DNA from: Bacteroidota bacterium
Lineage (GTDB): Bacteria > Bacteroidota > Bacteroidia > NS11-12g > UBA955
Reading direction: 5' to 3'
Assembly: GCA_024103355.1 (NCBI GenBank)
Contig: JAGFIU010000051.1
Coordinates: 19,548-83,547 of the forward strand
DNA: 64,000 nt
Shown here: in pieces, positions 1 through 28,758 of the stretch
How positions within the stretch are numbered: the first letter of the stretch is position 1
Layout: the number at the start of each line of letters is the position of its first letter
The notes under the pieces: model-generated
The model's input: only the letters and a program-made list of their open reading frames with translations
Databases searched by the model: none
Told to the model about the DNA's origin: nothing
Translations under genes and position numbers: made by a program

Positions 1-1
1 C

Positions 2-187
2 TATGATTGGAAGAAAATGAATAACAACGGAAGTCCTTTGGTATGGGGGCATCCGCAAGGCCCCACACTTACAAGAGTGATTATAGAAGCACTTGAAGAA
101 GCAGTAGAATTGGGCGGAGGATATGTTTTGGTTTTTGGATGTGCAGCCGGAGATGTTGGTATAGCGTCAATTTTTAAAGTAAACTGA
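2..187 (+). CDS. 3'-terminal fragment (C-terminal ~62 aa) of a thiolase (acetyl-CoA C-acyltransferase); the gene starts upstream of the window
   Basis: Frame-2 translation ...NGSPLVWGHPQGPTLTRVIIEALEEAVELGGGYVLVFGCAAGDVGIASIFKV* resembles the conserved thiolase C-terminus (GHPxGxTG...CxGGGxGxA). The stop is at 185-187, 11 bp before the next gene. Confidence 0.5.
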   Translation, partial: YDWKKMNNNGSPLVWGHPQGPTLTRVIIEALEEAVELGGGYVLVFGCAAGDVGIASIFKVN

Positions 188-197
188 GAGAAGAGAT

Positions 198-2288
198 ATG
201 GGAAAAACAATAAGAAAATCAACAATGGAAGCCCTTGGACTGGGAACGGTGTCAGCGATATTTAACAATGGAAAACTGCCGGTTTCTTTAGAAGAAATGG
301 TGGACAAGGTTTTTGGAGATAAGAATAACCGTGGCGCAATGGTCATTTCCGGAGCAGGTGGAATAGTAGGGGCAGGAAAGGTTATGCAGTTTGCATCACG
401 TTTGATGGATTATAACGTACCCATTATTGCCTTGGATTTGCCGGGCGCACCCGATGGGATTGCAAAACAATACAAAGGCTTGCAGGCTTCTTTTGGTGCT
501 GATGGCGCCAACAACATTATGAAGAACATCATCAAGCTGAATTATGATGGTCAAACCTTGCCTCAATCTTTGAAACAATACAATCCTAAATTCTTATTGG
601 AAGCCATTCCTGAAAGATTAGAATTGAAAAAAGCCCATTATGCTTTGTTCAAAAAAGAATATCCTGAGATTCATATTTGGTCAGTTACTTCAGGTTTCCC
701 TTCCAAAGAATTGGGCGTAGGAATTGCTCACCCGGCATTTCCACACGAAATCAATAAAGTTTTTGAAATAGTGGAGGACAGTACTTCAGCGCAAACACAT
801 CTGCTTTGGGCAATGGGGCTGATTCCAATGCAGGTAAGCGATGATTGGTCTTTTGTGCTGGATGTTTTCTTTTGCGGATTGTTACAGGCAAGCATTCAGT
901 TTTGCAACAGAACCAACACTCCTTATTGGAAAGCGGATAAATATATTCGTCAAATTCTCGGACCCAATCCATTCAGAGCACATGATGTGATTGGAGCTAA
1001 GGGAGCTAACTTCCTTACTTGGTCTTGCCTATACCATTTAGGAAAAGAATATGGCGCTTTGTTTGAGCCTACCGGAGAATTAACCGAAAGAAAAGACAGC
1101 GGTCAAAACTGGTATCCGGCTAATCATTTCAGACCTCTGGTAAATTGGCAATTGGATGAAGAAGAGTCTGAAGAATTAAAATCCATCGTGTATGGTGCTT
1201 TAATTCAAATGACCACCATCATGTTGCATGAAAAACGTACTGATTTGAGTACCATGACTGCAATTGGCGAGTTGTGTGCACAGTTTACAAATGGTATCCC
1301 TGCATTTATTCGTAAAATAGGAAGTCAACAGGCTTTGGAATACGTAAATAAATATCATCAACTTGTACCCAAAGCGGCACAGACAACATGGTATCCCGAA
1401 ACGCTGCAAAATCTCAACACTCCCGAATGGCAACAGCTCTATGTGAATGCAGAGCATGACGGCACACACGGGTTTATTACGATCAGCCGTGAGAGCTATA
1501 ATTATGATGTAAACGAAGAACTTAACCGTGCTATTGACTGGCTGCACAGCGAAGGAATCAAGAAAGTGGTATTGACTTCCGATTTTCATTTTTCTACGCA
1601 AATGGTAGGTGCGGATACTACTGAATTTTTTGTGGCTGTCAATGACAGTCATATTGGAGAGAAAATTTCTTCCGATTGGTCAAAAACAGCACGTAGGTTT
1701 TACCATGAGTTTGAAACTTCAATCGGGTTTGTCAACGGTAAAAGATGTATGGGCGGAATGTTGGAGTTGATGATGCATTGCCAATACCTTATAGCACCCG
1801 ATTATGTCAAATTTGCCATGCCGGAAGTAACACTGCCCGTAATTCCCGGAATGGAAGGCTGTCATTGGGTGTTGCGCAAAACAAATACAGACAATCATTC
1901 TAAAATGCTCGAAATGCTTTTGCATGGTCAACAAATCAATGCCCGGCAAGCACTCGGTTTCCTTGTGGATTCTTCCGGCACTATGAATGATTGCCTTGCC
2001 ATGACAAAAAACATTCTTGAAAATGGAGATACGGCTCTGCCCAAAAGAAAAATTATAGAAAATGCGATACCTCATATTGCATCTGAGATTGAGAAAATCA
2101 AATGGTCAGAAAATCCGCAAATCCTTTCAGCACAAAAAGAAATTGCCGGGTGCGTGATTGCTTCTTGTTCTGCAACTGCTGATGAGGCATTACAAATTCA
2201 AGCAAAGGTTTCTGCGCAGTTTATGTCGGGACAGCTATTTCGCAAAGGAAAGATTGGAATTGAATACGATAAATTTTCAAAAAACTAA
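198..2288 (+). CDS. Bifunctional 3-hydroxyacyl-CoA dehydrogenase (N-terminal NAD-binding domain) / enoyl-CoA hydratase (C-terminal crotonase fold), with the domains in reversed order relative to FadB/FadJ
   Basis: N-terminus has VISGAGGIVGAGKVMQFAS, which matches the GxGxxG Rossmann motif of the HAD family. The C-terminal ~250 aa (…GFITISRESYNYDVNEELNRAIDWLHSEGIKKVVLTSDFHFSTQMVGADTTEFF…) is a crotonase-type fold. 696 aa. Confidence 0.65.
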   Translation: MGKTIRKSTMEALGLGTVSAIFNNGKLPVSLEEMVDKVFGDKNNRGAMVISGAGGIVGAGKVMQFASRLMDYNVPIIALDLPGAPDGIAKQYKGLQASFGADGANNIMKNIIKLNYDGQTLPQSLKQYNPKFLLEAIPERLELKKAHYALFKKEYPEIHIWSVTSGFPSKELGVGIAHPAFPHEINKVFEIVEDSTSAQTHLLWAMGLIPMQVSDDWSFVLDVFFCGLLQASIQFCNRTNTPYWKADKYIRQILGPNPFRAHDVIGAKGANFLTWSCLYHLGKEYGALFEPTGELTERKDSGQNWYPANHFRPLVNWQLDEEESEELKSIVYGALIQMTTIMLHEKRTDLSTMTAIGELCAQFTNGIPAFIRKIGSQQALEYVNKYHQLVPKAAQTTWYPETLQNLNTPEWQQLYVNAEHDGTHGFITISRESYNYDVNEELNRAIDWLHSEGIKKVVLTSDFHFSTQMVGADTTEFFVAVNDSHIGEKISSDWSKTARRFYHEFETSIGFVNGKRCMGGMLELMMHCQYLIAPDYVKFAMPEVTLPVIPGMEGCHWVLRKTNTDNHSKMLEMLLHGQQINARQALGFLVDSSGTMNDCLAMTKNILENGDTALPKRKIIENAIPHIASEIEKIKWSENPQILSAQKEIAGCVIASCSATADEALQIQAKVSAQFMSGQLFRKGKIGIEYDKFSKN

Positions 2289-2291
2289 AGA

Positions 2292-3353
2292 ATGACAGAA
2301 AAGATAAAACAATGGCAAATGACAGAACTGAAAGCCGATTTCAAATTGGCAGTTTCTGATATGCCGCAGGTGAAAGAAGATGAAGCATTGGTAAAAGTTG
2401 CCGGATGCGGAGTTTGCCATACAGATTTGAGTTTTTGGCATGATGGCGTAAGAACAAAAAAGGAATTGCCTTTAACGCTTGGTCATGAAATCAGCGGAAC
2501 GGTTATAGAAGGACCTTCGCATCTCAAAGGGAAAAATGTCATTATTCCGGCTGTATTACCCTGTGGCGATTGCGAATTATGCAACAAAGGCAGAAGTAAT
2601 ATGTGCCAGAATCAATTGATGCCCGGAAATGATTTCCATGGAGGTTTTGCTTCTCATGTTGTTGTTCCGTACAAGTATTTGTGTCCTGTTCCGGATGCGG
2701 TTTTGCAAAAATATCAATTAGAAGAATTAGCAGTGATAGCAGATGCTATTTCAACCCCATACCAGGTTTTGAAAAAATCAGAATTGGAGAAAGGTGATTT
2801 GGCTATTTGCATTGGTGTTGGAGGTGTTGGAGTATATGGTGCATTGATTGCCAAAATTATGGGAGCCAAAGTTTTGGCAATAGATATCAATGATGAAAAA
2901 TTAGAACAAGCCAAAAAGAATGGTGTACATGCAACACTCAATTCAAAAGGTTTGGATAGCAAAGAAATTAAAGCCAAAGTAAAAGAAATAGCCAAAGAGT
3001 TGGGCGCACCCAAATACGGTTGGAAAATCTTCGAGTTTTCAGGTACTACAGCCGGTCAGGATTTAGCGTTTAACCTGCTCACTTTTACTTCAAACTTGAG
3101 TATTGTAGGGTTTACCATGAACAAACTGGAAGTAAGATTGAGCAACCTTATGGCTTTTGATGCCAAGCTCATTGGTACATGGGGATGCAAACCTGAGCTG
3201 TATTCAGAAGTAGTTGATTTGATTGCCTCCGGCAAATTGGATATCAAAGACTTTGTTCAAACTTTCCCGATGAGCCGTATCAATGAAGTTTTCCAAAACA
3301 CTTTAGCTCACAAATACACCAAACGTTCCGTATTAGTACCTGATTTTAATTAA
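2292..3353 (+). CDS. Zn-dependent alcohol dehydrogenase (MDR superfamily). Candidate 6-hydroxycyclohex-1-ene-1-carbonyl-CoA dehydrogenase (Had)-like
   Basis: GroES-like N-terminal domain with GCGVCHTDL and a structural-Zn Cys cluster (CGDCELCNKGRSNMC). Rossmann motif GVGGVGVYG. 353 aa. Starts 4 bp after the upstream stop. Confidence 0.8.
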   Translation: MTEKIKQWQMTELKADFKLAVSDMPQVKEDEALVKVAGCGVCHTDLSFWHDGVRTKKELPLTLGHEISGTVIEGPSHLKGKNVIIPAVLPCGDCELCNKGRSNMCQNQLMPGNDFHGGFASHVVVPYKYLCPVPDAVLQKYQLEELAVIADAISTPYQVLKKSELEKGDLAICIGVGGVGVYGALIAKIMGAKVLAIDINDEKLEQAKKNGVHATLNSKGLDSKEIKAKVKEIAKELGAPKYGWKIFEFSGTTAGQDLAFNLLTFTSNLSIVGFTMNKLEVRLSNLMAFDAKLIGTWGCKPELYSEVVDLIASGKLDIKDFVQTFPMSRINEVFQNTLAHKYTKRSVLVPDFN

Positions 3354-3357
3354 ACAA

Positions 3358-4473
3358 ATGAAAATAGAAATGGAAGCATTAAAAAATCACAATATCGTAG
3401 AAGACTACAACTACACTGACATTCTTTATGAAAAACGTCCTTGTTTAAACACTGACGGAACTCCTGTTGACGGCTTGTACAACGCATGGATTATCATTAA
3501 CAATCCCAAACAGTACAACTCTTACACTACCAAAGCTGTAAAGGAAATTATCCTTGCATTTGGTGAAGCTTCCAATGACAGAAGTGTTGTTGCAGTAGTA
3601 TTTACAGGTGTGGAAGACAAGGCTTTTTGTACCGGAGGAAACACCAAAGAATATGCAGAATATTATTCCGGCAACCCGCAGGAATACTCTCAATATATGC
3701 GCTTGTTCAACGATATGGTTTCTGCCATTATGAAATGTGAAAAGCCGGTTATTTCCCGTGTAAACGGAATGAGAATAGGGGGAGGACAAGAAATAGGAAT
3801 GGCTTGTGATTTCACGGTAGCAAGTGATTTAGCTCGTTTTGGGCAAGCAGGACCTAAGCATGGAAGTGCTGCTATTGGTGGCGCAACAGACTTCCTGCAT
3901 TTGTATGTGGGAGTAGAAAGAGCCATGTATTCACTTTCGTTGTGCGAGCCGTGGTCTGCACATCAGGCTTTGCATTATGGCATGATTACCGACATTGCTC
4001 CTGCATTGAAAGTGGATGGGAAATTTATTGCCAATCCTTTGGTCAATATTGAAAAATATGCTGATGAATATGGCAGGGTAATTTTTGGCGCTATGAAAAC
4101 AGGAGAAGAATTAGCAAAAGGAAAAGAGTTGATGACAAAAGGAGAAGTTGATTTGTCAAAGTTGGATGAATTGGTCAACAAGCTCATTGCAAAATTGCTG
4201 CACACCTTTCCGAATTGCCTGCACAAAACACTTTCTGAAGTGCGCAAGAAAAAATTAGAGCATTGGGATAAGAACAAAGAAAGCAGCCGTGAATGGTTGG
4301 CGTTAAATATGATGTCCGAAGCAAAAGCTGGATTCAGGGCTTTCAATTACGGTCCCAAAAATGACAGGGAAGTGGACTTTATCAAACTCCGTCAGTTGTT
4401 GGCACAAGGACACGAATGGAATGAAGACTTGCATCGTGCTATTTCTCCTCAGTTTAAAACCGAAAACGTATAA
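3358..4473 (+). CDS. Crotonase-superfamily protein with a long C-terminal extension (371 aa). Candidate ring-opening beta-oxoacyl-CoA hydrolase (Oah/BamA/BadI-like)
   Basis: Crotonase core (VVAVVFTGVEDKAFCTGGNTKEY…ISRVNGMRIGGGQEIGMACDF) followed by a ~100 aa C-terminal extension. This size matches ring-hydrolysing members rather than the ~260 aa hydratases. Confidence 0.7.
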   Translation: MKIEMEALKNHNIVEDYNYTDILYEKRPCLNTDGTPVDGLYNAWIIINNPKQYNSYTTKAVKEIILAFGEASNDRSVVAVVFTGVEDKAFCTGGNTKEYAEYYSGNPQEYSQYMRLFNDMVSAIMKCEKPVISRVNGMRIGGGQEIGMACDFTVASDLARFGQAGPKHGSAAIGGATDFLHLYVGVERAMYSLSLCEPWSAHQALHYGMITDIAPALKVDGKFIANPLVNIEKYADEYGRVIFGAMKTGEELAKGKELMTKGEVDLSKLDELVNKLIAKLLHTFPNCLHKTLSEVRKKKLEHWDKNKESSREWLALNMMSEAKAGFRAFNYGPKNDREVDFIKLRQLLAQGHEWNEDLHRAISPQFKTENV

Positions 4474-4475
4474 AA

Positions 4476-5248
4476 TGGAAAAGATTAAACTTACATATTC
4501 TCACAATCATTCTGTTGCCAATATCCTCTTGAATGATGGCAAAGGCAATGTGCTGGATAATATAATGATGTTGGAATTGTTGGATTGTTTCAAAGAATTT
4601 GCAGAAAATAAGCACCTCAAACTAATTACATTTCAAGGTGAAGGAAAGCATTTTTCTTTTGGGGCAAGCGTAGAAGAACATACACAGGAATTTGCCGAAA
4701 TGATGCTCAAAACTTTTCACCGACTATTTATGGTGTTGAAGGATATGGCAATTCCTACAATGGCAAAAATTTCGGGTCAATGTTTGGGAGGCGGAATGGA
4801 GTTAGCAATCTTATGTAATTTCTTGTTTGCAGATAAAACAGCAAAACTCGGTCAACCCGAAATTGTATTGGGAGTGTTTCCGCCACCGGCTTCCATTATT
4901 CTCCCGGAAAAAATAGGGCTTTCCCGTGCAGAAGAGTTGTTGTTGAGCGGTAGGAGTATTGATGCAGAGGAAGCATTGAGAATTGGATTGGTGCACAAGG
5001 TATTTGAAGATAAAGAAGCATTGAACCTGGGTACAGAAGAATGGATTGAAAAAAATATTATTCCTAAAAGCGCATCCTCACTTCGATTTGGTGTGAGAGC
5101 AGCCAGGGCAAAATTCAACCATGTGTTGAGTAATTTTTTACCACAACTTGAACAAATGTATCTAAGCCAGTTGATGAATACCAAAGATGCAAATGAAGGT
5201 ATTACTTCATTTTTGGAAAAACGTCAGCCGGCATGGGTAAACGAATAA
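4476..5248 (+). CDS. Enoyl-CoA hydratase/isomerase family protein (257 aa). Candidate dienoyl-CoA hydratase (Dch)-like
   Basis: Crotonase motifs (KLITFQGEGKHFSFGASVEEH…KISGQCLGGGMELAILCNFLFAD). I prefer the ATG at 4476, 3 bp after the upstream stop, over the ORF-track start at 4361, which would overlap the preceding gene by 113 bp. Confidence 0.75.
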
Positions 5249-5261
5249 AGATGAAAAGAAA

Positions 5262-7088
5262 ATGATAGTAGAAAGTGCAGTCATAAAATTTGCAGGAGAT
5301 TCCGGAGACGGGATACAGTTAGCAGGCACCTTGTTTACTGAAAACGTAGCATTGATGGGCAATGCTATCGCTACATTTCCTGATTTTCCTTCTGAAATCA
5401 GAGCACCACAAGGAACTGTTGCCGGTGTTTCCGGTTTTCAGATTCATTTTGGTACCTCGGGGGTACATAGTCCCGGAGATGCACCGGATGTGTTGGTAGC
5501 AATGAACCCGGCTGCTCTCAAAGCCAATATCCACGCTCTCAAGGCCAATTGTTTGATTATTGTGGATGCTGATTCTTTTGGAAAAAGAGATATTGAAAAA
5601 GCAGGGTTTGACAGTAATCCGTTGGAGGATGGAACATTAGAGGGATATCAGGTGATTGCCGCTCCTATTACTTCCTTAACAAAAGCTTCGGTTGCAGAAT
5701 TGGGATTGGACAATAAATCTGCTGACCGTTGTAAAAATATGTTCACGCTTGGGTTGGTGTTATGGTTATTTAATGAATCCTTGGATAGCACACTTCGATA
5801 TTTTGAACAAAAATTTAAAAAGAATCCCGTCATTGAAGCTGCCAATAAAAAGGCGTTGAATGCAGGATTTAACTATGGGTTAAATACAGAAGCGATTAAA
5901 ACTTCATTTACCGTATTACCCGCACCGAAGGCATCCGGAACTTATCGTAACATGACAGGAAACCAGGCAACCGCATGGGGATTTATGGCAGCTGCAGAAA
6001 AGGCCGGAAGACCCTTGTTTTTAGGCTCTTATCCCATTACTCCGGCAACCGATATTATGCAAGAGCTTACCAAGCACAAATGGTCAGGAGCAAGGGTTTT
6101 TCAGGCGGAGGATGAAATAGCCGGAATCTGTTCTGCCATTGGAGCTGCTTTTGCCGGAAATATTGCTGTTACTACTACATCAGGCCCCGGAATGGCTCTT
6201 AAAACAGAAGCCATCGGTTTGGCTGTGATGACAGAATTGCCGATTGTGATTGTGGATGTACAAAGAGGAGGCCCCAGTACAGGATTGCCTACCAAAACTG
6301 AACAAAGTGATTTGATGCAAGCGATCTGGGGAAGAAATGGAGAAAGTCCCGTGGTTGTGCTTTCTGCCGGAACTCCTTCTGACTGTTTTGATTGGGCTTA
6401 TGAAGCAGTGCGCATTGCCGTTGAACACATGACTCCGGTTTTTTTATTGACTGAAAGTTATCTTGGCAACGGAGCAGAACCTTGGAAAATTAAGAAATTG
6501 GCGGATATGCCTGCAATTACTCCCAGAACCTTAGCAAATCCGGATCCTGCATGGAAACCTTATAGCCGTGATGAAGAAAAATTAGCGCGTTATTGGGTAA
6601 TACCAGGCACTGCCGCTATGCAACACCGTATTGGAGGTTTAGAAAAAGATGAATGTACAGGATGCGTGTCCACCAATCCGCAAAACCATGAGAAAATGGT
6701 AAAAATTCGCAAGGAGAAAATTAAAAAAATTGAAAACTACATACCGCTACAACGATACAAAGGCAAAGATGCCAAAAAGTTATTGGTAGTAGGCTGGGGA
6801 GGACAATTTGGTATATTGATGGGAGCCGTAAAAGAATTGCAGGAAGAAGGGAAAGACTTAGCCTATGCCCATTTTAATTATATCAACCCCTTACCAAAAA
6901 ATACGGCAGAGGTGTTTTCTAAATTTGAAAAGATAATTGTTTGTGAATTGAACGATGGTCAATTAGCCAAATACTTGAGGGCGGTGATGCCTCAGTTTCA
7001 GTATGAGCAATACAACAAGATACAGGGACTTCCATTTACCGTAAAAGAACTAAAAGAAAAATTTACACAACTACTTTCTGAATTTTAA
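5262..7088 (+). CDS. korA: 2-oxoacid:ferredoxin oxidoreductase, alpha subunit (KorA-type)
   Basis: 608 aa. N-terminus GDSGDGIQLAG and the overall layout are typical of 2-oxoglutarate/2-oxoacid:ferredoxin oxidoreductase alpha subunits. The beta subunit follows 2 bp later. Confidence 0.85.
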   Translation: MIVESAVIKFAGDSGDGIQLAGTLFTENVALMGNAIATFPDFPSEIRAPQGTVAGVSGFQIHFGTSGVHSPGDAPDVLVAMNPAALKANIHALKANCLIIVDADSFGKRDIEKAGFDSNPLEDGTLEGYQVIAAPITSLTKASVAELGLDNKSADRCKNMFTLGLVLWLFNESLDSTLRYFEQKFKKNPVIEAANKKALNAGFNYGLNTEAIKTSFTVLPAPKASGTYRNMTGNQATAWGFMAAAEKAGRPLFLGSYPITPATDIMQELTKHKWSGARVFQAEDEIAGICSAIGAAFAGNIAVTTTSGPGMALKTEAIGLAVMTELPIVIVDVQRGGPSTGLPTKTEQSDLMQAIWGRNGESPVVVLSAGTPSDCFDWAYEAVRIAVEHMTPVFLLTESYLGNGAEPWKIKKLADMPAITPRTLANPDPAWKPYSRDEEKLARYWVIPGTAAMQHRIGGLEKDECTGCVSTNPQNHEKMVKIRKEKIKKIENYIPLQRYKGKDAKKLLVVGWGGQFGILMGAVKELQEEGKDLAYAHFNYINPLPKNTAEVFSKFEKIIVCELNDGQLAKYLRAVMPQFQYEQYNKIQGLPFTVKELKEKFTQLLSEF

Positions 7089-7089
7089 T

Positions 7090-8109: not shown

Positions 8110-8122
8110 TAAACAATATACT

Positions 8123-8470
8123 ATGGCTATCAAAATCACTGAAGACTGTATCAATTGCGGAGCCTGTGAGCCCGAATGTCCAAACAAAGCAATTTTTGCC
8201 AATGGAGAACCCTGGACTATGGCAGACGGTACAAACATTACCTCAGACTACACTTTAATGAACGGGAATACCATTGACCCTTTTGCTGAGCAAGAACCGG
8301 TTTCAACTGAATATTACTACATTGTTACCGATAAATGCACAGAATGTGTTGGTTTTCATGATGAACCTCAATGCGCCTCTGTGTGTCCTGTAGATTGCTG
8401 TTTGCCTGATGAAAATCACAGAGAGTCTAGAGAAGAGTTGGAAGCAAAACAAAAGAGATTACATGAATAA
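8123..8470 (+). CDS. fdx: 2x[4Fe-4S] ferredoxin, Allochromatium (Alvin)-type motif with a long inter-cluster insertion
   Basis: Cluster I is CINCGACEPECP (Cx2Cx2Cx3CP). Cluster II is CTECVGFHDEPQCASVCP (Cx2Cx8Cx3CP). About 50 aa separate the two motifs. 115 aa. Confidence 0.85.
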   Translation: MAIKITEDCINCGACEPECPNKAIFANGEPWTMADGTNITSDYTLMNGNTIDPFAEQEPVSTEYYYIVTDKCTECVGFHDEPQCASVCPVDCCLPDENHRESREELEAKQKRLHE

Positions 8471-9094
8471 ATGAGAAGTTTTCTGCAATATATGAATGAA
8501 GCAGCAGCCATTATTTTGGCCGGTGGGGAGTCCAAAAGAATGGGGTTTCCTAAACTCCTATTGCCCTTTGATAGTGGCAAAACCTTTATTGAGCAGATTG
8601 CAGATACTTATGCTAAGGTTATTCAAGGCGAGGTTATTTTGGTTATTAATGCAGAGGTATTGAAAGCTCACAGTACGTTCTTTTCTCAGTTTAAGGATTT
8701 GATAATAGTCCCAAATCATAATCCTGACCTTGGCAGAACATACTCTATCCAGCTTGGATTGGCGAAGACACAGAAAAGAAAAATTTTTATTCAAAATACT
8801 GATAATCCTTTTGTGAGTGAGAAATCGCTTTTGTCAATGCTTGAATTGGCTTCTAAAGATGCTTATGTTTCTCCGAGAAGTAACGGTAAAGGAGGACATC
8901 CGATTTTAATATGCGGAAATGTAATTGATAAGATTGTCAAGGCAGATTATGATAAAAGTTTAAAGAGCATTCTTGCTGACTCTATGCGTATAGATTGGAT
9001 AACAGATGATGCCTCTATGCTTGTGAATATTGATACTCGCGATGTTTATAAACAGTATTTTCCTAATCTAAATACGGAATTTAACAATGCATAA
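8471..9094 (+). CDS. mocA: Molybdenum cofactor cytidylyltransferase / MobA-like NTP-transferase (MocA-type)
   Basis: N-terminal AIILAGGESKRMGFPKLLLPF nucleotidyltransferase motif. Its start codon overlaps the ferredoxin stop. It sits beside xdhC and an XDH-family enzyme. Confidence 0.7.
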   Translation: MRSFLQYMNEAAAIILAGGESKRMGFPKLLLPFDSGKTFIEQIADTYAKVIQGEVILVINAEVLKAHSTFFSQFKDLIIVPNHNPDLGRTYSIQLGLAKTQKRKIFIQNTDNPFVSEKSLLSMLELASKDAYVSPRSNGKGGHPILICGNVIDKIVKADYDKSLKSILADSMRIDWITDDASMLVNIDTRDVYKQYFPNLNTEFNNA

Positions 9095-9898
9095 ATGACA
9101 AGCCCTAAATTACCATATCATCCCAACAAACTCAAATCTGCACTCTGCATTATTGTGGATACCAGAGGCTCTACACCGCGTAAAGCCGGTACTAAAATGC
9201 ATGTATTTGAAAACGGGAAAATTGAGGGAACTATTGGTGGAGGTGCTTTAGAAAAAAAAGTAATTGAAGATGCTCTTGCACAAATAAAAGTGGGCAACCC
9301 CAGATTGTTTGAACACCAGCTTCTCCAACAACATAATATGTGCTGTGGCGGTATGGTAAAGGTATATATAGAACCGGAAGCACAGAAAAATCATTTGATA
9401 ATTTTTGGTGCAGGGCATGTTGGGCAGGAATTAGCAAACCAGGCGGTGAAAGCGGAGTTTGATGTAACTGTGTTTGATGACAGACCCGAATATATACAGC
9501 AAATCACCAACGAAACTATCGAGGCTCAATGCCTTGATTTTTCAGATGCATTAAAGCAAATCTCTTTTGGTGAAAATACTTATATCGCTATTCTTACTTA
9601 CCGGCACGATATTGACCGGGCTTTGCTTCGGTATTGTTTGAGAAAAGAAAGAGCCTATCTCGGTTTTATTGGTAGTCAACGAAAAATATTGGTTACACGA
9701 AAAATGATGTTACAGGAAGGAATAGCAACAGAAGAAGAATTGAACAAAGTAGATATGCCTATTGGTTTGAACATTGGTGCTGAATCACCTTTTGAAATAG
9801 CGGTTAGCATTATGGCAAAACTGATAGAAGTGAAAAACCAAGAGCAGGTTAATACAATTCAACAAATAAAAGACATAGAACAATGCATAAAAGAATAG
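9095..9898 (+). CDS. xdhC: XdhC/CoxI-family MoCo insertion/maturation accessory protein
   Basis: 267 aa with a Rossmann-like C-terminal half (LIIFGAGHVGQELA). Starts directly after the mocA stop. Typical neighbour of XDH-family structural genes. Confidence 0.7.
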   Translation: MTSPKLPYHPNKLKSALCIIVDTRGSTPRKAGTKMHVFENGKIEGTIGGGALEKKVIEDALAQIKVGNPRLFEHQLLQQHNMCCGGMVKVYIEPEAQKNHLIIFGAGHVGQELANQAVKAEFDVTVFDDRPEYIQQITNETIEAQCLDFSDALKQISFGENTYIAILTYRHDIDRALLRYCLRKERAYLGFIGSQRKILVTRKMMLQEGIATEEELNKVDMPIGLNIGAESPFEIAVSIMAKLIEVKNQEQVNTIQQIKDIEQCIKE

Positions 9899-10605
9899 CC
9901 GTCATAACAGGAGCTGCCAAGGGTATTGGAAAATCTATTGCGCAAAGGTTCGCACGTGATGGCTATCAATGTGTATTGGTGGATGTGGATGAAGTACAAG
10001 GGCAGCAATTGGCAAAGGAATTGGGTAAGGATGCGATTTTCCGTTCATGTGATATCAGTGATGAGTCAGATGTTAAAAAGTTGTTTGAAAGCCTTGAGAG
10101 AATAGATGTTTTGATAAACAATGCCGGGATAATTCGTGATAATATGATTTGGAAAATGCCGGTGGAAGATTTTGATAGGGTTGCAAATATCAACCTGAAA
10201 GGAACATGGATGATGTGTCGCGAAGCGGCTTTGAGGATGAAGGAACAAAGAAGCGGAAGAATAGTAAACATTGCTTCTAGAGCGTGGTTAGGAAATCCTG
10301 GACAGTCTAACTATGCTGCTTCAAAAGCGGGTGTGGTAAGCCTGACAAGGGTTCTGGCTTTGGAATTGGGGCGATACGGCATATTGGTTAATGCCATTGC
10401 TCCCGGTTTGATTGATACCCCTTTGGCACAAGGGTTAACGGATGAAGTTAGAGAAAAGCTCATTCAGGCACAACCGACTAAAAGCATGGGAAAACCGGAG
10501 GATGTGGCACATGCAGCCGCTTTTCTGTGTGATGAAAATACCTTGTTTATTACCGGTCAAACCTTGTATGTAGATGGCGGAAAAAGTATTGGAGCAGGAC
10601 TGTGA
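9883..10605 (+). CDS. Short-chain dehydrogenase/reductase (FabG-like 3-oxoacyl reductase family)
   Basis: TGAAKGIGKSIA Rossmann motif, NNAG, and the YxxxK catalytic dyad (YAASKAG). 240 aa. Overlaps xdhC by 16 bp. Confidence 0.85.
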   Translation: MHKRIAVITGAAKGIGKSIAQRFARDGYQCVLVDVDEVQGQQLAKELGKDAIFRSCDISDESDVKKLFESLERIDVLINNAGIIRDNMIWKMPVEDFDRVANINLKGTWMMCREAALRMKEQRSGRIVNIASRAWLGNPGQSNYAASKAGVVSLTRVLALELGRYGILVNAIAPGLIDTPLAQGLTDEVREKLIQAQPTKSMGKPEDVAHAAAFLCDENTLFITGQTLYVDGGKSIGAGL

Positions 10606-10633
10606 AAGTATTGAAAGATGAAAAATAAATGCA

Positions 10634-13426
10634 ATGAGAAAGATAAGTTTAAAAATCAACAACAAGCCTTATACCTTTCTGGCAAACGATTCAGAGACTT
10701 TGTCTCATGTAATTCGTGAAAGGGCAGGGCTTACGGGAACAAAGGTCGGGTGCAGCCAGGGCAGTTGCGGAGCTTGTACAGTCATTGCAGACGGAGAACC
10801 GGTATTGAGTTGCATTACTCCTGCATTTCGATTTGACAATGCTGAAATTCAAACAATAGAAGGGTTATCCAATCAGGGTACTCCGGAACTTTTACAGGAA
10901 TTGTTTGTGCGCAAAGGAGCTATCCAATGTGGTTTTTGCACACCCGGAATGGTATTGACCGCTAAGGATTTTGTAAACAAAAATCCCAATGCAACCAAAC
11001 AGGATATCAAAGAAGCACTATCCGGGAATTTATGCCGCTGTACCGGTTATAAAAAGATTATTGAAGCTGTTACCGAATATACCGAACTCCACAAACAAGG
11101 TGTTGAGCACTTGCCGCCTGTTGAAGAAAGCAGCAAAATCATTGGTGTCAGCCGACCTTATATCGAAGCAGAAAAAAAGGTTTTAGGCAAAGCCCTTTAT
11201 GCCGATGATTTACAATTCAGAAATTTGTTATACTGCAAGTTTCTGCGAAGCACTCATGCTCATGCATTGATTGAAGATATTGATATTTCAGAAGCGCAAA
11301 AAATGGAAGGAGTGGCTTATGTAGCTGTAGGAAAAGAGTTGCCTGAAAAATTCGGAGTCTTGCCTGTTTCGCATGATGAAACGGCTATGGCTATCGAAAA
11401 GACACGCTATTTTGGAGAAATAGTTGCAGCCGTAGCGGCTGAGAGTTTTGAAATTGCTGAAGCTGCATGTAAAAAAATCAAAGTTAAATACAAACCGCTC
11501 AAAACTTATTTTAGCATTGAAGAATCCATTCATGACGTAGGCGACAATGCCAAGATTCACGAACACTGCAAGTTCAACAATAATATTCACAAAAAAGCAG
11601 AATTGCGTTTTGGAAACCAGGAAGAAGGATTTAATAATTCTGATATCATTTCTGAAATGGAATTTGATGTGGAAGGAGTTTCTCATGCTTTTACTGAGCC
11701 TCATTCGGCAACAGCTTATTGGGATGAAAACGGATTGACCATTCACACGGCTACACAAGTTCCTCATTATCTTCACAGAGCTTTAGCCAAAGTAATGCAA
11801 GTTCCATTGAGCAGGGTGCGTGTTATCAAACCTTATGTAGGCGGTGGTTTTGGAGGAAAGAGTGATCCCTTTCCACATGAGATGATTATCTCTCACATTG
11901 CCCGAAAGACAGGCAGGCCTGTGCGCTCCACTTTTACAAGAGAAGAAGTTTTTCTTAGCAATCACGGCAGGCATCCATCCAAATTCAAAATGAAAATGGG
12001 AGCCGACAGCAATGGAATGTTGAAAGTATTGGATGCTGATGTGGCAATAGATGGCGGTGCTTACGGCAGCTTTGGCGTGGTTACTTCATACTATAACGGG
12101 GTGCTATTACAGGCACCTTATGAAATTAAAGACTTTGGATTTAGAACGTATCGTGTTTATACCAACAAGCCTCAATGTGGTGCTATGCGTGGGCACGGAG
12201 CTGTTAATACCCGTTTTGCTGCTGAAACGCTCATAGATGATATTGCCCATAGGTTGAACATCGATCCGTGTGAAATGAGGTTGAAGAATTTTTATAAAGA
12301 AAATGTAATTACTATCGGGCAGTTCAGAATTACATCCAATGGCAGTAGAATGGCTTTGCAGCAAGTAATGGAACGCTCCGGTTGGAAAGACAAGCGTGCG
12401 AACTTGCCGGCAGGACGAGGAATTGGGGTGGGATGTGGTTTCTTCATCAGCGGAAGCGCCTTGCCGATTATCTGGAATGAATATCCTCAAACAGTGGTAC
12501 ATCTGAAATTGGATTTTGACGGAAGAATTTTGATTTCTTCCGGTGCCAGTGATATAGGCCAAGGAAGCGATACCATGCTGGCAATGGTGGTAGCAGAAAC
12601 GATGGGTGTTGATATGCAAAAAGTTTTTGTACTTGCTGCCGATACTTTGCTAACTCCGGTGGATTTAGGAAGTTATTCCAGCCGGGTTACATTCATGTGT
12701 GGAAATGCTGCCAAACAAGCGGCTGAAAAACTTAAATCTGAAATATTAGAAGCGGTTGCCAAAAGAAAAGCAATAGCAATAGAAGAATTGTATATTGAAA
12801 ACAGTCGGGTACGCTCCAATGATAAACAAGTGGATTTAGAATGGTTGGAAGCGGTGGATATGGCTACAGCTCATCGCGGAGCTTTGACGGTTAGCGGTAA
12901 TTATATTTCACCAAAATTAGGAGGCGATTTTAAAGGAGCAGGTGCAGGGTTAAGCCCTTCATACAGTTTTGGAGCGTGTATAGCAGAAGTAAATGTAGAT
13001 AAACAAACGGGGCAGGTAGAATTACTCCATGTCTGGGGTGCACACGACTGCGGAAAAGCACTGAATCCATTAGCAGTTGAGGGACAGTTGGAAGGTTCTT
13101 GGCACATGGGAATAGGACAGGCAGTCAGTGAAGAGATGAAATACTTTAACGGGTTGCTCTTAAATAACAATTTCTGTGATTACAAAATCCCTACCACCTT
13201 AGACACTCCCGAAATAGATACTAATATCATAGAATCCGGAGATCCGGAAGGACCCTTTGGGGCTAAAGAATGTGGCGAGGGAGCTTTACATCCTGTTATT
13301 CCGGCTATAGCCAATGCCATTTTTAATGCCTGTGGAGTGCGCATTACCAAACTGCCCATCAAAGCAGACGAAGTACTGTCACAAATAAAAGCAAATATGC
13401 AAGTGAAGGCGGAAGCAATAAACTAA
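10634..13426 (+). CDS. Xanthine-dehydrogenase-family molybdenum enzyme with the [2Fe-2S] small subunit fused N-terminal to the MoCo-binding large subunit (HcrC+HcrA / CoxS+CoxL-like, 930 aa)
   Basis: N-terminal ~160 aa carries GCSQGSCGACTV, CGFCTPG and CRCTGY, the two [2Fe-2S] motifs. The downstream region has the a/b-hammerhead and MoCo-binding domains, including GGGFGGK. The C-terminal part has GAKECGEGA in place of the usual GxGE catalytic-Glu loop. Confidence 0.85.
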   Translation: MRKISLKINNKPYTFLANDSETLSHVIRERAGLTGTKVGCSQGSCGACTVIADGEPVLSCITPAFRFDNAEIQTIEGLSNQGTPELLQELFVRKGAIQCGFCTPGMVLTAKDFVNKNPNATKQDIKEALSGNLCRCTGYKKIIEAVTEYTELHKQGVEHLPPVEESSKIIGVSRPYIEAEKKVLGKALYADDLQFRNLLYCKFLRSTHAHALIEDIDISEAQKMEGVAYVAVGKELPEKFGVLPVSHDETAMAIEKTRYFGEIVAAVAAESFEIAEAACKKIKVKYKPLKTYFSIEESIHDVGDNAKIHEHCKFNNNIHKKAELRFGNQEEGFNNSDIISEMEFDVEGVSHAFTEPHSATAYWDENGLTIHTATQVPHYLHRALAKVMQVPLSRVRVIKPYVGGGFGGKSDPFPHEMIISHIARKTGRPVRSTFTREEVFLSNHGRHPSKFKMKMGADSNGMLKVLDADVAIDGGAYGSFGVVTSYYNGVLLQAPYEIKDFGFRTYRVYTNKPQCGAMRGHGAVNTRFAAETLIDDIAHRLNIDPCEMRLKNFYKENVITIGQFRITSNGSRMALQQVMERSGWKDKRANLPAGRGIGVGCGFFISGSALPIIWNEYPQTVVHLKLDFDGRILISSGASDIGQGSDTMLAMVVAETMGVDMQKVFVLAADTLLTPVDLGSYSSRVTFMCGNAAKQAAEKLKSEILEAVAKRKAIAIEELYIENSRVRSNDKQVDLEWLEAVDMATAHRGALTVSGNYISPKLGGDFKGAGAGLSPSYSFGACIAEVNVDKQTGQVELLHVWGAHDCGKALNPLAVEGQLEGSWHMGIGQAVSEEMKYFNGLLLNNNFCDYKIPTTLDTPEIDTNIIESGDPEGPFGAKECGEGALHPVIPAIANAIFNACGVRITKLPIKADEVLSQIKANMQVKAEAIN

Positions 13427-13437
13427 TCAATGAAACT

Positions 13438-14376
13438 ATGGAAGCAACACAATCTTACATCAAAGTAAAAACCACGAACGAGGCAATGCAGCAAATCAAC
13501 AGCCTGCAAAATGCTATTTTCGTTGCCGGAGGTACCGATGTCTTTGTAAACAAACAACAAGGAAATATTGAAGCCGGATACTTAATAGATGTTTCGGGAA
13601 TTGAGGATTTAATGACTTGCCGTTTATATGATGACCGGATAGAAATCGGTGCCATGTTTACCCTTGAAAAAATTATCCAATCGGAAACGATTAACACTCA
13701 TTTTCCAACATTGGTTCAAGCAGCATTGGCGGTAGCAACTCCTGTAATTCGCAAAACGGCAACCATTGGAGGCAATGTGTTATGCGAAAATCGTTGTTTC
13801 TATTACAACCAAAGCGAATGGTGGCGAGAAGCCGTAGGGCATTGTCTCAAATGCAACGGGGATATTTGTTTGGCAACAGGGGGTAGAAAAAATTGTTTTT
13901 CAAAATTTGTAAGTGATACCGCACCGGTTTTGATTGCTTATGGTGCCACCGCCATTCTGATAGATGCCGATGGAGAGCGCTGTGTGCCTTTGGAGAGTAT
14001 CTATACTGGTGATGGAATTGTTTCTGTTACCTTAAACAAAAAGACTTTGCTCAAATCCATTGAAATTCCTTTAAGCACAAAAAAGGTAATTTTCAAAAAA
14101 CTCAGACCCAGAAAAACACTTGATTTTACCTCGCTTACTACTGCGGTCTCCCTTGATAATAAAATGAATTTGCGCATGGTCATCGGTGGTGTTGACCCTA
14201 AGCCGATAGTGGTGGAAGGAAATCTGAAAAAAGAAGATTTATTACAATTGGTTACCACAGCCATCAAAAAACCGAGAGTAGTGGAAAATGACTTTTACTC
14301 ACGTACATACCGGAAAGACATGATAAAAGTCTTTATAGAAAACAGTCTTAACGAATTAGGAATCCAAATTAATTAA
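13438..14376 (+). CDS. FAD-binding medium subunit of the molybdenum enzyme (CoxM/HcrB-like), with a cysteine-rich insertion loop that probably binds a [4Fe-4S] cluster
   Basis: FAD-binding fold (IFVAGGTDV). Insertion GGNVLCENRCFYYNQSEWWREAVGHCLKCNGDICLATGGRKNCF has Cys at positions 116, 120, 136, 139, 144 and 153 of the protein. Four of these have 16/8/9 spacing. Confidence 0.8.
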   Translation: MEATQSYIKVKTTNEAMQQINSLQNAIFVAGGTDVFVNKQQGNIEAGYLIDVSGIEDLMTCRLYDDRIEIGAMFTLEKIIQSETINTHFPTLVQAALAVATPVIRKTATIGGNVLCENRCFYYNQSEWWREAVGHCLKCNGDICLATGGRKNCFSKFVSDTAPVLIAYGATAILIDADGERCVPLESIYTGDGIVSVTLNKKTLLKSIEIPLSTKKVIFKKLRPRKTLDFTSLTTAVSLDNKMNLRMVIGGVDPKPIVVEGNLKKEDLLQLVTTAIKKPRVVENDFYSRTYRKDMIKVFIENSLNELGIQIN

Positions 14377-14398
14377 CAAATCATAAAACAGAATCAAC

Positions 14399-14908
14399 AT
14401 GAATGAAGTAGTCAAAGTTTTAACCGGAGAGCACGAAAATATTAAACGTGCCATTGAACATACACATCGCTTGTTTGCAGATATTTTATCCGGCAATGCA
14501 GAACTCAATATGATGTTAGAACGTATTGATTTTTTTAGAAATTATGCAGACGGATATCATCATCATAAAGAAGAAGAAGTCTTGTTTCCTGAAATGATTA
14601 AACGCAATGAAATGCTGGAATACGGTGTTATTCATGAGATGTTGCAAAATCATGAAGACTTCAGAGAAATGCTTTCCGAATTGGAAGATGCTGTAAACGA
14701 TGGAGATGCAGAAGGAGCAAAGAAAAAATTTGAAGTTTATGCAGAAGCTTTGTTAGAACATATTGCTGTAGAAGATGAAGAAGTATTTCAGATTGCCGAG
14801 ACCATTATGAGCGAAGATGAACTACTGACCGTACTCTACCGTTTTGAGGATTGTGACAGAGAGTTGGGAGTGGATGAAAAAAAAGAGTGGGAGAAAAAAA
14901 TAGGGTAG
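14399..14908 (+). CDS. Hemerythrin-like (HHE cation-binding domain) protein
   Basis: 169 aa with H…HHxxEE…H…E pattern (YHHHKEEEVLFPEM, HEMLQNHEDF, LEHIAVEDEE) typical of bacterial hemerythrin-like di-iron domains. Confidence 0.65.
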   Translation: MNEVVKVLTGEHENIKRAIEHTHRLFADILSGNAELNMMLERIDFFRNYADGYHHHKEEEVLFPEMIKRNEMLEYGVIHEMLQNHEDFREMLSELEDAVNDGDAEGAKKKFEVYAEALLEHIAVEDEEVFQIAETIMSEDELLTVLYRFEDCDRELGVDEKKEWEKKIG

Positions 14909-15008
14909 AAGGATTCTGCAATTATTGAATTGATATGTTTTACCTAAAATAAAGCAACTCGGGTTGATGCAATAAAACCAAGATTGTATTTACTTTTGTT
15001 CCAACATT

Positions 15009-15917
15009 ATGATAAACATCACCTGTAAAAGTAGTACACTGCGAATCGCGATAGCGCAAGCAATCGTTAAAGTGAGCACAGAAGAAACAATCAATGCCAT
15101 GAAGGAAAATCGTGTACCCAAAGGGGATGTTTTTGAAATGTCCAAGACTGCGGGTTTGTTTGCTGTTAAACGAACCAGTGATATGATTCCCGATTGCCAT
15201 CCTTTGCCCGTAGAATATACCAATGTAAGATTTGAAATGAAAGGGTTGGAGGTTCATATTGAAATGGAAGTTCATACAATCTACAAAACAGGTGTGGAAG
15301 TTGAAGCTATGCACGGAGTTTCAGTTGTTGCATTGACTATGTATGACATGCTCAAGCCGATTGATAAGCATATTGAAATTTGTTCTATTAAACTGAAGGA
15401 AAAGAAAGGGGGTAAATCTGATTTTAAAGATAATTTCAGAAAAGACTTAAAAGCGGCTGTGATTGTTTGTTCTGACAGCATTTCCGGGGGACAAAAGGAG
15501 GATAAGGCCGGTAAGTCAATAATAGAAAAACTTGAAAACTGTGAGGTTTCCATTTCCTCATATTTGATTATTCCTGATGAAATAGAAGAAATCAGAAAGA
15601 AAGTACAATCATTGGTTGCTTCAAACAATCTGATAATTTTGACAGGTGGAACAGGTTTGTCACCGAGAGATGTAACCCCGGAAGCATTAAAAGGAATGTT
15701 TGACAGAGAAATCCCCGGAATTATGGAAGCGGCCAGAAATTATGGACAAGAAAGAACTCCGTTTTCTATGCTTTCCCGTGGGGTAGCAGGTTTGATCGGC
15801 AATACACTTGTGCTTGCATTGCCCGGCTCTACTAAGGGAGCAAAGGAATCAATGGATGCCCTATTCCCGTATGTTTTACATATTTTTAAAATAATTGGCG
15901 GTGATAGACACGATTAA
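15009..15917 (+). CDS. moaC: Molybdenum cofactor biosynthesis fusion protein: MoaC (cyclic pyranopterin monophosphate synthase) N-terminal plus MogA/MoaB (molybdopterin adenylyltransferase) C-terminal
   Basis: N-terminal half has MoaC-like sequence (…[31 protein letters not shown]…). C-terminal half has a MogA/MoaB-like GGTG motif ([17 protein letters not shown]). 302 aa. Confidence 0.8.
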
Positions 15918-15929
15918 TATCTGATATCT

Positions 15930-16352: not shown

Positions 16353-16355
16353 TAA

Positions 16356-16838: not shown

Positions 16839-17048
16839 CCTGCTCTTTTAATTTTATTTTTCAAATATAATACAAGTGAGTTAAGCCGATTAAAAGTATT
16901 TTTAAATTTTTGGGTAAACTGAAAATAGATGAATATGCTAAATAAAAATAGATTGAAAGCCAATAGTTCCCATTTTTTTCTAATATTTGCCGGCACATCT
17001 ATAGTTTATTTTGTGAATTAAATATTTGGGTGAATTTCGTTAGCCAAT

Positions 17049-22457: not shown

Positions 22458-22678
22458 CAGGGAAGTCAAAAATATTCTCAATATATCAATCAGGTGGCAA
22501 AATGATTTGCTGCCTGATTTGCTTATGCTGTCTTGTATTTACTGCCAAATCCCACGACTCCTTAGCCAACTACACAGTGAAAAAAGGAAAATACAATCTT
22601 ATTTGGAGTGCGCTATAAATTTTAAATCGGTTATTTTTATAATTCAAAACTAAACATTCATTACTCAACATTCTTGCC

Positions 22679-22686: not shown

Positions 22687-22703
22687 CGCCACTCAATAAA
22701 ATA

Positions 22704-28717: not shown

Positions 28718-28758
28718 GATTGATTATTAATGAAAATGACGTAATTTGCAGTGTTTTT

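Follow-up and report, generated by a model that had tools for sequence, protein, structure and literature searches.

The 64,000-nucleotide stretch of DNA analysed here (the window), taken from contig JAGFIU010000051.1 of a Bacteroidota bacterium, opens with a run of genes at positions 2-15917 that probably forms the distal two-thirds of a complete anaerobic benzoyl-coenzyme A (benzoyl-CoA) operon with 22 genes or more in a length of no less than 24 kb. Gene content and order make it likely that this operon lets an uncultured Bacteroidota bacterium degrade benzoate-type aromatic acids anaerobically via benzoyl-CoA, including a dehydroxylation like that of 4-HBCR (4-hydroxybenzoyl-CoA reductase), carried out by a molybdenum enzyme whose small and large subunits are fused. 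To our knowledge, the anaerobic ring reduction of benzoyl-CoA has been worked out almost wholly in Proteobacteria and otherwise in small numbers of Firmicutes and Archaea, and no study characterising benzoyl-CoA reductase (BCR) or 4-HBCR in Bacteroidota or other lineages of the Fibrobacteres-Chlorobi-Bacteroidetes (FCB) superphylum was found in the published literature. Coordinates are those of the window and genes lie on the + strand unless said otherwise; annotation combined an open reading frame (ORF) listing with Pfam and NCBIfam profile searches, whose scores are given in bits and set against the NCBIfam cut-offs, and the contigs L001-L101 are related loci fetched for comparison.

Gene order and upstream flank

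The ORF listing gives 16 same-strand genes in an unbroken + run from 2 to 16352. Spacing between the operon genes lies between -16 and +28 nucleotides, the sole exception being the 100 nucleotides from the hemerythrin gene to moaC/moaB, and the run goes on past 15917 into a MORN-repeat gene and leftwards beyond base 1. The initial annotation, made from the sequence alone, had described one co-directional run from 2 to 15917, which holds, with gaps or overlaps of 0-30 bp, which is slightly off in view of the 100-nucleotide gap; its 15 domain assignments were all reproduced by Pfam and NCBIfam. Gene order is the same on L001/L009, a separate contig from a metagenome-assembled genome (MAG) with 77-80% nucleotide identity, and again in the operon of L099, and this recurrence shows that the arrangement in the window is conserved rather than the product of chance.

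Window positions 1-11519 (11.5 kb) and 1-6653 (6.7 kb) recur with 99.97% identity on the Logan contigs L006 and L007, respectively, and L007 extends the window by 8.7 kb to the left. There it carries, in this order, the 3' part of bcrB, bcrA, bcrD, and genes for an AMP-binding ligase, an HGD-D protein, an ApbA-activase fusion and the thiolase; both the bcr genes and the CoA ligase for which an upstream search had been proposed are thus present on contigs nearly identical to the window. Compared with their L009 orthologues, the proteins of this same-strain contig are 95% (partial BcrB), 91% (BcrA) and 90% (BcrD) identical. In L009 the order is HGD-D, HGD-D, BcrAD, BcrAD, with BcrB at 661 bits (cut-off 487), BcrD at 323 (cut-off 313) and BcrA at 409 (below 578); the first HGD-D gene (396 residues), upstream of bcrB, is a putative bcrC, and the last three are of about the same sizes as Thauera BcrB, BcrA and BcrD. 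By their domains and profile scores, the upstream genes are those of a Thauera-type, ATP-dependent class I BCR (two HGD-D subunits and two BcrAD ATPases), and it is because L007 and L009 carry bcr genes upstream that we read positions 2-15917 as the distal two-thirds of a benzoyl-CoA operon.

Between the ligase and thiolase genes, the HGD-D gene (~405 residues; best match an HadB-like model at 216 bits, with 73 bits for the double-cubane model) is followed by one for a 614-residue fusion of a ketopantoate-reductase-like (ApbA) domain to a dehydratase-activase ATPase. This pair (L007 4662-7720, L009 5732-8790, L096 4-3025, L101 17977-21013) is kept wherever the sequenced flank of a Bacteroidota benzoyl-CoA operon extends far enough upstream to show it, and it could be an aryl-lactyl-CoA dehydratase or an ATP-dependent reductase like the double-cubane cluster proteins (DCCP).

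The molybdenum enzyme

The fused subunit (10634-13426, 930 residues) has Fer2, Fer2_2, Ald_Xan_dh_C, MoCoBD_1 and MoCoBD_2 domains, arranged as an HcrC-like part with two [2Fe-2S] clusters at residues ~1-150 and an HcrA-like part, for molybdenum with molybdopterin cytosine dinucleotide (MCD), at ~170-920. Its family placement is based on gaps between profile and PDB scores. The HcrA-like part reaches 815 bits with the HcrA model TIGR03194 (cut-off 994.55), followed by XdhA at 552 and CO dehydrogenase models at 245-355; against all PDB chains it finds Thauera HcrA (1RM6_A) at 599 bits and the next chain at 323, and BLASTP aligns it with Thauera HcrA at 41% identity over 752 residues. On both comparisons (815 versus 552 bits in NCBIfam, 599 versus 323 in PDB) the large subunit is nearer HcrA than hydroxylases, as had been expected. 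The HcrC-like part scores 156 bits with TIGR03193, below its cut-off of 257.8. Eight FeS cysteines (C40, C45, C48, C60, C99, C102, C134 and C136) are invariant in the family alignment, and the fusion of the gamma and alpha subunits is found in all 119 full-length proteins among the best 120 matches; one of these 120, P0098 (785 residues), is without the 2Fe-2S domains.

The flavin adenine dinucleotide (FAD) subunit (13438-14376) has as its top match the HcrB model TIGR03195, at 206 bits (cut-off 404.55), with XdhB at 118, and it matches 1RM6_B with an E value of 3e-42. Its FAD_binding_5 match covers 207 residues against a 170-position model, and alignment to 1RM6_B places an HcrB-type insertion loop at 13795-13896, in which C120, C136, C144 and C153 align with C122, C138, C146 and C155 of the Thauera protein, which are reported to be the [4Fe-4S] ligands (Unciuleac et al. 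2004). The extra FeS loop predicted for this subunit is therefore in register with that of Thauera HcrB, and its four cysteines are invariant in eight sequences (seven Bacteroidota HcrB proteins and Thauera). As a control of specificity we used metagenome loci with fused xanthine oxidase (XO)-family proteins of 28-47% identity, picked by generic 2Fe-2S peptide patterns: each of the 13 related (non-metagenome) loci with an hcrB gene has the loop motif, versus 1 of the 80 distant fused 2Fe2S-Mo loci. A hydroxylase-like large subunit and a missing cysteine loop had been named beforehand as refuting an Hcr-type enzyme, and neither was observed, given the score gaps and the four aligned cysteines. 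These comparisons indicate that fused HcrCA and HcrB would make up a 4-HBCR-like enzyme, with a substrate predicted from family and context.

Among the distant loci, four from soil and other metagenomes (L020, L032, L033 and L043) have a crotonase gene preceding a fused 2Fe2S-Mo protein of 40-44% identity, and in L047 such a protein adjoins Oah-like (50%) and HGD-D-like (50%) genes. The HcrB cysteine-loop motif is absent from all five, whose fused proteins may represent further members of the XO family that use CoA esters.

Predicted ring-opening and electron-supply genes

Three consecutive genes encode the putative lower benzoyl-CoA pathway. The zinc-dependent alcohol dehydrogenase-family protein at 2292-3353 is assigned as 6-hydroxycyclohex-1-ene-1-carbonyl-CoA dehydrogenase (Had; TIGR03201, 455.9 bits, cut-off 338.65) and the ring-opening crotonase at 3358-4473 as 6-oxocyclohex-1-ene-1-carbonyl-CoA hydrolase (Oah/BamA; TIGR03200, 598.8 bits, cut-off 464.45), so that the resemblances first noted for both are backed by equivalog cut-offs. 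The short crotonase (4475-5248, 257 residues) had also been likened to cyclohexa-1,5-diene-1-carbonyl-CoA hydratase (Dch), whose model TIGR03189 is its top match, but the score of 230 bits stays under the cut-off of 292.5; the next family is at 145 bits, and the gene directly follows oah in every related locus showing oah. Its ORF opens at 4361, and the start at 4475 is taken from the gene calls in L006 and L009.

Upstream of these, the window begins with the last 61 codons (2-187) of a thiolase gene of 398 residues, 100% identical to the C-terminus of the L007 thiolase, which in full has Thiolase_N and Thiolase_C domains; the L009 orthologue scores 161 bits with AcCoA-C-Actrans, below the cut-off of 240.55. 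The next gene (198-2288, 696 residues) encodes a divergent fusion of an N-terminal 3-hydroxyacyl-CoA dehydrogenase (HAD) to a C-terminal enoyl-CoA hydratase (ECH). In Pfam, residues 436-666 match ECH_1 and ECH_2 and the 3HCDH_N match is weak; an AlphaFold2 model (25 homologues, predicted local distance difference test score 85) matches the 3-hydroxyacyl-CoA dehydrogenases 3MOG, 1F0Y and 6ACQ with probability 1.0, which supports the HAD/ECH reading for this very divergent protein. Its identity is 19% to the canonical 3HCDH-ECH fusion that stands in its place in sister loci, and as this canonical form has the same HAD-then-ECH order, the order is not the distinctive feature it had been taken for. 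Homologues with 57-100% identity fill at least 120 protein clusters, the named matches coming from Bacteroidota, Ignavibacteria, Zixibacteria and Aminicenantes MAGs, and the cluster representative P0121 differs from the window protein in one residue (99.86% identity over 696 residues).

Electrons would be supplied by a two-subunit 2-oxoacid:ferredoxin oxidoreductase (OFOR), as suited by the sizes of its subunits. KorA (5262-7088, alpha subunit, 608 residues, POR and POR_N domains) passes the subfamily model TIGR03710 (OAFO_sf) with 646.6 bits against a cut-off of 482.75, and reaches only 34 bits with the PadG model. KorB (7090-8109, 339 residues) is the beta, thiamine pyrophosphate-binding subunit (TPP_enzyme_C domain), at 252 bits with TIGR02177, just below 261.9, and at 259 bits with PRK11866. 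The following gene (8123-8470) encodes an Alvin-type (YfhL family) 2x[4Fe-4S] ferredoxin (NF033683, 94.6 bits, cut-off 86) whose PDB matches, 2FGO from Pseudomonas, 1BLU from Allochromatium and 1RGV from Thauera aromatica (E 3.8e-16), fall in two blocks at residues 3-26 and 63-112. The insertion of about 35 residues between them (~27-62) has no counterpart in the solved homologues from Thauera, Allochromatium, Pseudomonas and E. coli and is kept in the L009 copy (81% identical).

In Thauera, KorAB is the documented ferredoxin-reducing donor system of BCR (PMC9973337), and the ferredoxin is named as electron donor of 4-HBCR in the title of a paper cited there. Because of this precedent and because a class I BCR shares the operon, the KorAB/ferredoxin pair most plausibly feeds both the BCR and the molybdenum enzyme, with 2-oxoglutarate as the putative substrate of KorAB by analogy with Thauera. 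The electron path to a 4-HBCR that the initial annotation drew is upheld in its family assignments and its Alvin-type ferredoxin, and has to be qualified in that the Thauera system is primarily a donor for BCR.

Distribution of the molybdenum module

The fused protein was followed through 13 lineages with 69-93% identity, 12 of which have informative flanks. Genes of the bcr, had, oah or dch type lie within 10 kb of the molybdenum module in 9 of the 12, the gene for a short-chain dehydrogenase/reductase (SDR) is directly upstream of hcrCA in 11 of the 12, and a hemerythrin gene is directly downstream of hcrB in 9 of the 13. In L100 and L101, mocA-xdhC-SDR-hcrCA-hcrB(-hemerythrin) forms a separate unit divergent from bcrCBA. 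The OFOR beside the module takes three forms (KorAB, a pyruvate:ferredoxin oxidoreductase [PFOR] of 1175 residues, or a four-subunit OFOR). Such conserved neighbours support the reading of the enzyme as a reductase that is driven by ferredoxin and belongs to benzoyl-CoA metabolism.

Nor is the family rare, since its members among MAG proteins number in the thousands, and some are auto-named '4-hydroxybenzoyl-CoA reductase' by JGI. One abundant type, P0032 (L013-L015, 72% identical), has a putative operon of a narK-like gene, mocA, xdhC, hcrCA, hcrB, a hemerythrin gene and a PFOR gene, the last starting 10 nucleotides after the hemerythrin gene. Its NarK-like proteins score 278-280 bits, both below the family cut-off of 312, and its flanks in L014 (4527-17799) also hold genes for cytochrome c peroxidase, MbnP, a 241-residue hemerythrin and MoaA.

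Other neighbours of the module vary. A U32-peptidase-family protein and a small Fer4 ferredoxin adjoin it in L011/L012 (16613-18078) and L098 (20080-21541); UbiU and UbiV, hydroxylases that work without O2, are members of the U32 family. Genes of the Beta_elim_lyase (tyrosine phenol-lyase/tryptophanase) family stand directly after hcrB, in convergent orientation, in L096 (13796-16783) and L097 (13760-15130), and these neighbours hint at a link to aromatic amino-acid breakdown.

Cofactor and accessory genes

Three genes of the operon concern the molybdenum cofactor (Moco). A MocA-like molybdenum cofactor cytidylyltransferase for MCD synthesis (8471-9094, NTP_transf_3) has TIGR03310 as its top match, with 108.6 bits, below the cut-off of 186; an XdhC-family chaperone for Moco insertion and maturation follows at 9095-9898 (XdhC_CoxI and XdhC_C; NF045664 206 bits, TIGR02964 143.7 bits), and a bifunctional MoaC/MoaB (MogA-like) biosynthesis protein lies at 15009-15917 (NF002947, 404.6 bits, cut-off 285). 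The MoaC-MogA fusion had been called distinctive, which it is not, being the catalogued family NF002947. 4-HBCR carries the MCD form of Moco (PMC12771579), and the predicted products of all three genes fit an MCD-dependent XO-family enzyme.

The FabG-like SDR (9883-10605, adh_short_C2, 219.7 bits) has among its PDB matches BbsD (7PCS_B, 204 bits), a benzylic 3-hydroxyacyl-CoA dehydrogenase. The hemerythrin (14399-14908, 169 residues) has an HHE di-iron domain (PF01814, E 4.7e-17) and no similar chain among PDB sequences. The roles of both proteins are ones that we infer. The MORN-repeat gene (15930-16352, MORN_2 domain), which starts 12 nucleotides after moaC/moaB, is also found 3' of moaCB in L001, and its membership of the operon is uncertain. 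A search for Rfam families, including the Moco riboswitch, gave none in 1-17200 nor in the 100-nucleotide gap before moaC; a terminator scan of 14300-17200 likewise gave none, and promoter-like sites were no higher than in shuffled background.

Discussion

What is directly observed is which genes are present and in what order, the families to which they are assigned, the cysteine loop and the conserved bcr linkage, and from this a pathway can be proposed. Its starting compounds would be hydroxycinnamates or aromatic amino acids, which after activation would be shortened by beta-oxidation, yielding benzoyl-CoA and 4-hydroxybenzoyl-CoA. KorAB would oxidise a 2-oxoacid (2-oxoglutarate, if Thauera is a guide) and reduce the Alvin-type ferredoxin, which in turn would deliver low-potential electrons to BCR and to HcrB. 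These electrons would enter the molybdenum enzyme at the extra [4Fe-4S] cluster on the FAD subunit and, relayed by FAD and two [2Fe-2S] clusters, arrive at the Mo-MCD centre. There, xanthine-oxidase chemistry run in reverse would take the para-hydroxyl off 4-hydroxybenzoyl-CoA or a closely similar compound, giving benzoyl-CoA ahead of ATP-dependent ring reduction. Dch, Had and Oah would hydrate, oxidise and hydrolytically open the dienoyl-CoA ring, with the HAD/ECH fusion and the thiolase taking the beta-oxidation steps, while MocA, XdhC and MoaC/MoaB would build and insert the MCD cofactor and hemerythrin would probably be an O2 guard or sensor for oxygen-labile enzymes. The direction of electron flow, the identity of the substrate and the specificity of KorAB are the parts of this scheme that we infer.

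The closest characterised systems, HcrABC of Thauera aromatica (1RM6/1SB3) and HbaBCD of Rhodopseudomonas palustris, are like the predicted window system XO-family enzymes with Mo-MCD, FAD and two [2Fe-2S] clusters, with a four-cysteine insertion on the FAD subunit for an extra [4Fe-4S], an Alvin-type ferredoxin gene nearby and a setting of benzoyl-CoA pathway genes. They differ in having three separate subunits, whereas gamma and alpha are one 930-residue ORF here, and in their proteobacterial hosts, as opposed to a Bacteroidota host with conserved SDR and hemerythrin partners; the window large subunit, 41% identical to HcrA, also stays below the equivalog cut-offs. Thus, among the fusions proposed as distinctive by the initial annotation, that of gamma and alpha (small and large subunit) is indeed absent from the proteobacterial systems, and those of MoaC-MoaB and HAD-ECH are not distinctive. 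The Thauera aromatica cluster (bcrCBAD, fdx, dch, had, oah, korAB) shares class I BCR, Had, Oah, KorAB and ferredoxin with the window operon, which in contrast merges hcr, Moco genes, a FadD-like ligase and the thiolase into one long operon, adds one lone HGD-D protein next to the ApbA-activase fusion as well as the divergent HAD/ECH protein, and has the 35-residue insertion in its ferredoxin.

Ucdh (UcdCFO) of Enterocloster is likewise an XO-family reductive phenol dehydroxylase that depends on MCD and XdhC (PMC12771579), the corresponding activity of the window enzyme being a prediction. It acts on a free polyphenol, not on a CoA ester, in the context of gut Firmicutes, is 32.7% identical to 4-HBCR and removes a hydroxyl para to an electron-withdrawing carbonyl (PMC12771579), and its FAD subunit UcdC is without the 4Fe-4S cluster binding domain (PMC12658268). 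As of 2025, 4-HBCR and Ucdh were the only XO-family reductive dehydroxylases known (PMC12771579). A third and structurally distinct lineage, in which subunits are fused and hemerythrin is a partner, would enlarge this small class and offer a tractable target for heterologous expression. Within the FCB superphylum, bcrABCD genes in Krumholzibacteriota MAGs have been inferred to encode a class I BCR that dearomatises benzoyl-CoA, as proposed here, and in the same 2024 survey the 37 representative genomes from the rest of the FCB superphylum yielded neither bcr nor bam genes (PMC10936416). The window and its hundreds of close homologues contrast with that result: at least 120 protein clusters contain BcrB homologues with 84% identity or more, and the named ones come from MAGs of several Bacteroidota families.

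Several observations weigh against a strict reading of the operon as a classical benzoyl-CoA pathway with a true 4-HBCR. The HcrA, HcrB and HcrC scores are all under their equivalog cut-offs (815<995, 206<405 and 156<258), and in PDB several other small-subunit chains come slightly above 1RM6_C for the HcrC-like part; with 41% identity added to these scores, the molybdenum enzyme is best described as an HcrA-like sister group whose strict orthology is not established. The classical pathway gives a role to neither the conserved SDR nor the hemerythrin, and the ligase matches none of the benzoate- or 4-hydroxybenzoate-CoA ligase models. L003 and L005 have only SDR-hcrCA-hcrB-hemerythrin, adjoining genes of the type IX secretion system (T9SS), and in the P0032 type, where another NarK-like gene and an FNR-like regulator in divergent orientation are present, benzoyl-CoA genes are absent within 10 kb.

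Much of this would also be expected if the molybdenum enzyme were a ferredoxin-driven reductive dehydroxylase with a substrate other than 4-hydroxybenzoyl-CoA (p-coumaroyl-CoA, 4-hydroxyphenyl-propionyl- or -lactyl-CoA, protocatechuyl-CoA, or a free phenolic as with Ucdh), the SDR acting on the same side chain. The sub-cut-off scores and the moderate identity to HcrA, an SDR linked in 11 of 12 lineages with BbsD among its solved relatives, a ligase whose nearest solved relative is, weakly, feruloyl-CoA synthetase, the occurrence of the module alone in L003, L005 and L013-L015, and the existence of a second XO-family dehydroxylase with a non-CoA substrate (PMC12771579) all favour such a substrate. 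We nevertheless regard it as unlikely, since the family is nearer 4-HBCR (41%) than Ucdh is (32.7%, PMC12771579), retains the HcrB loop, and has a benzoyl-CoA operon context in 9 of 12 lineages, in which production of benzoyl-CoA is an obvious need. Another reading concerns the electron supply: KorAB and the ferredoxin might serve BCR only, or KorAB might be an arylglyoxylate or arylpyruvate:ferredoxin oxidoreductase that makes aryl-CoA, its adjacency to the molybdenum genes being incidental. This would agree with the documented role of Thauera KorAB (PMC9973337), with the molybdenum modules of L004/L011/L012, L100 and L101, which have no adjoining KorAB or fdx, and with a KorA subfamily model that is uninformative on substrate. 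However, the P0032-type PFOR adjoins the module, directly behind the hemerythrin gene, with no BCR nearby, which indicates that an OFOR is linked to the molybdenum module itself; the Thauera ferredoxin is 4-HBCR's electron donor according to the cited title (in PMC9973337); and the PadG score is low, so that we consider this reading quite improbable.

That the enzyme is an ordinary oxidative XO-family hydroxylase or dehydrogenase (for a purine, N-heterocycle, aldehyde or CO) placed in the operon by chance deserves very little credence. Its domain set is indeed general to the XO family and fused 2Fe2S-Mo proteins are common in metagenomes, but the HcrA model scores more than 260 bits above every hydroxylase model, the HcrB-type loop is absent from 79 of 80 distant fused relatives, and the linkage to bcr, had and oah genes is conserved. 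Equally hard to credit is that the reversed electron path serves to reduce an N-oxide or a small inorganic compound, nitrate or nitrite for instance, with hemerythrin handling nitric oxide (NO) or O2. The operon of L013-L015, with its two NarK-like genes, PFOR and divergent FNR-like regulator, is what suggests it; this context is found in only 1 of 12 lineages against 9 with benzoyl-CoA genes, both NarK-like proteins are below the family cut-off, and a dedicated XO-family nitrate reductase would be without precedent. A non-aromatic function for the P0032-type copies has a low probability.

A bolder proposal, which we hold to be doubtful, is that mocA-xdhC-SDR-hcrCA-hcrB-hemerythrin is a self-contained, Bacteroidota-wide reductase module, with SDR and hemerythrin partners that proteobacterial systems lack, and that the operon encodes an undescribed route for aromatic amino acids or hydroxycinnamates followed by dearomatisation. 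In the steps to benzoyl-CoA or 4-hydroxybenzoyl-CoA, the FadD-like ligase and the single-subunit HGD-D dehydratase/reductase, whose activase is fused to a ketoacid reductase, would then act along with the HAD/ECH protein, SDR and thiolase; in a radical variant, the P0032-type copies with NarK-like transporters and PFOR may take a different, non-aromatic substrate. If the proposed route were true, tyrosine, phenylalanine and phenolics from lignin would have a major anaerobic sink, so far overlooked, in the proteolytic Bacteroidota of wastewater and sediment.

Under the benzoyl-CoA reading that we prefer, the chemistry is not new in kind and the proteins are already auto-named by pipelines. The gamma-alpha fusion, the tightly linked SDR and the frequent hemerythrin nevertheless set this lineage apart from the proteobacterial systems, and many uncultured Bacteroidota (Saprospiraceae, Flavobacteriales, Sphingobacteriales and Chitinophagales) appear to hold a complete Thauera-type pathway together with a 4-HBCR-like dehydroxylase. 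Credit for removing the carbon of phenolics and aromatic amino acids in anoxic systems, both engineered and natural, would shift with this.

Host and genomic surroundings

The closest homologues are those in MAGs of Bacteroidia, Chitinophagales, Saprospiraceae, Flavobacteriales and Sphingobacteriales, and the window has the T9SS sorting domains CHU_C and Por_Secre_tail. The nearest public MAG (L001/L009, JBDHXA010000005.1, isolate AS-MESO-3CA.163) is labelled 'Chlorobiota bacterium' in NCBI, which we regard as a loose FCB-level label, the T9SS genes and the homologues pointing to Bacteroidota. The GC content of the operon region is 0.37-0.43 versus 0.32-0.39 in the remaining window, and together with the similarity of BcrB homologues it could reflect lateral spread within the phylum or strong constraint.

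T9SS cargo and peptidases are encoded at 28705-32406, 33363-36317, 44808-50045 and 52406-55480, and comprise a CHU_C protein, an M16 peptidase, two tandem C10 (streptopain-like) peptidases, which carry inhibitor prodomains and Por_Secre_tail, and an M1 peptidase. They support a proteolytic Bacteroidota host. Two further genes, both a few kb from the operon with its O2-sensitive enzymes, encode O2-dependent enzymes, a fatty-acid desaturase at 22674-23777 and a 4-hydroxyphenylpyruvate-dioxygenase-like (HPPD-like) protein on the - strand at 26085-27212, and they therefore suggest a facultative or microaerobic host. Such a facultative host would fit a class I BCR and hemerythrin as an O2 guard or sensor. 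Further along lie genes for a COX1-family protein (37373-38683, 436 residues, a weak match at 93 bits) and for a 645-residue protein with paired CXXCH haem motifs (58886-60823), which may be unusual respiratory or NO-reductase-type components.

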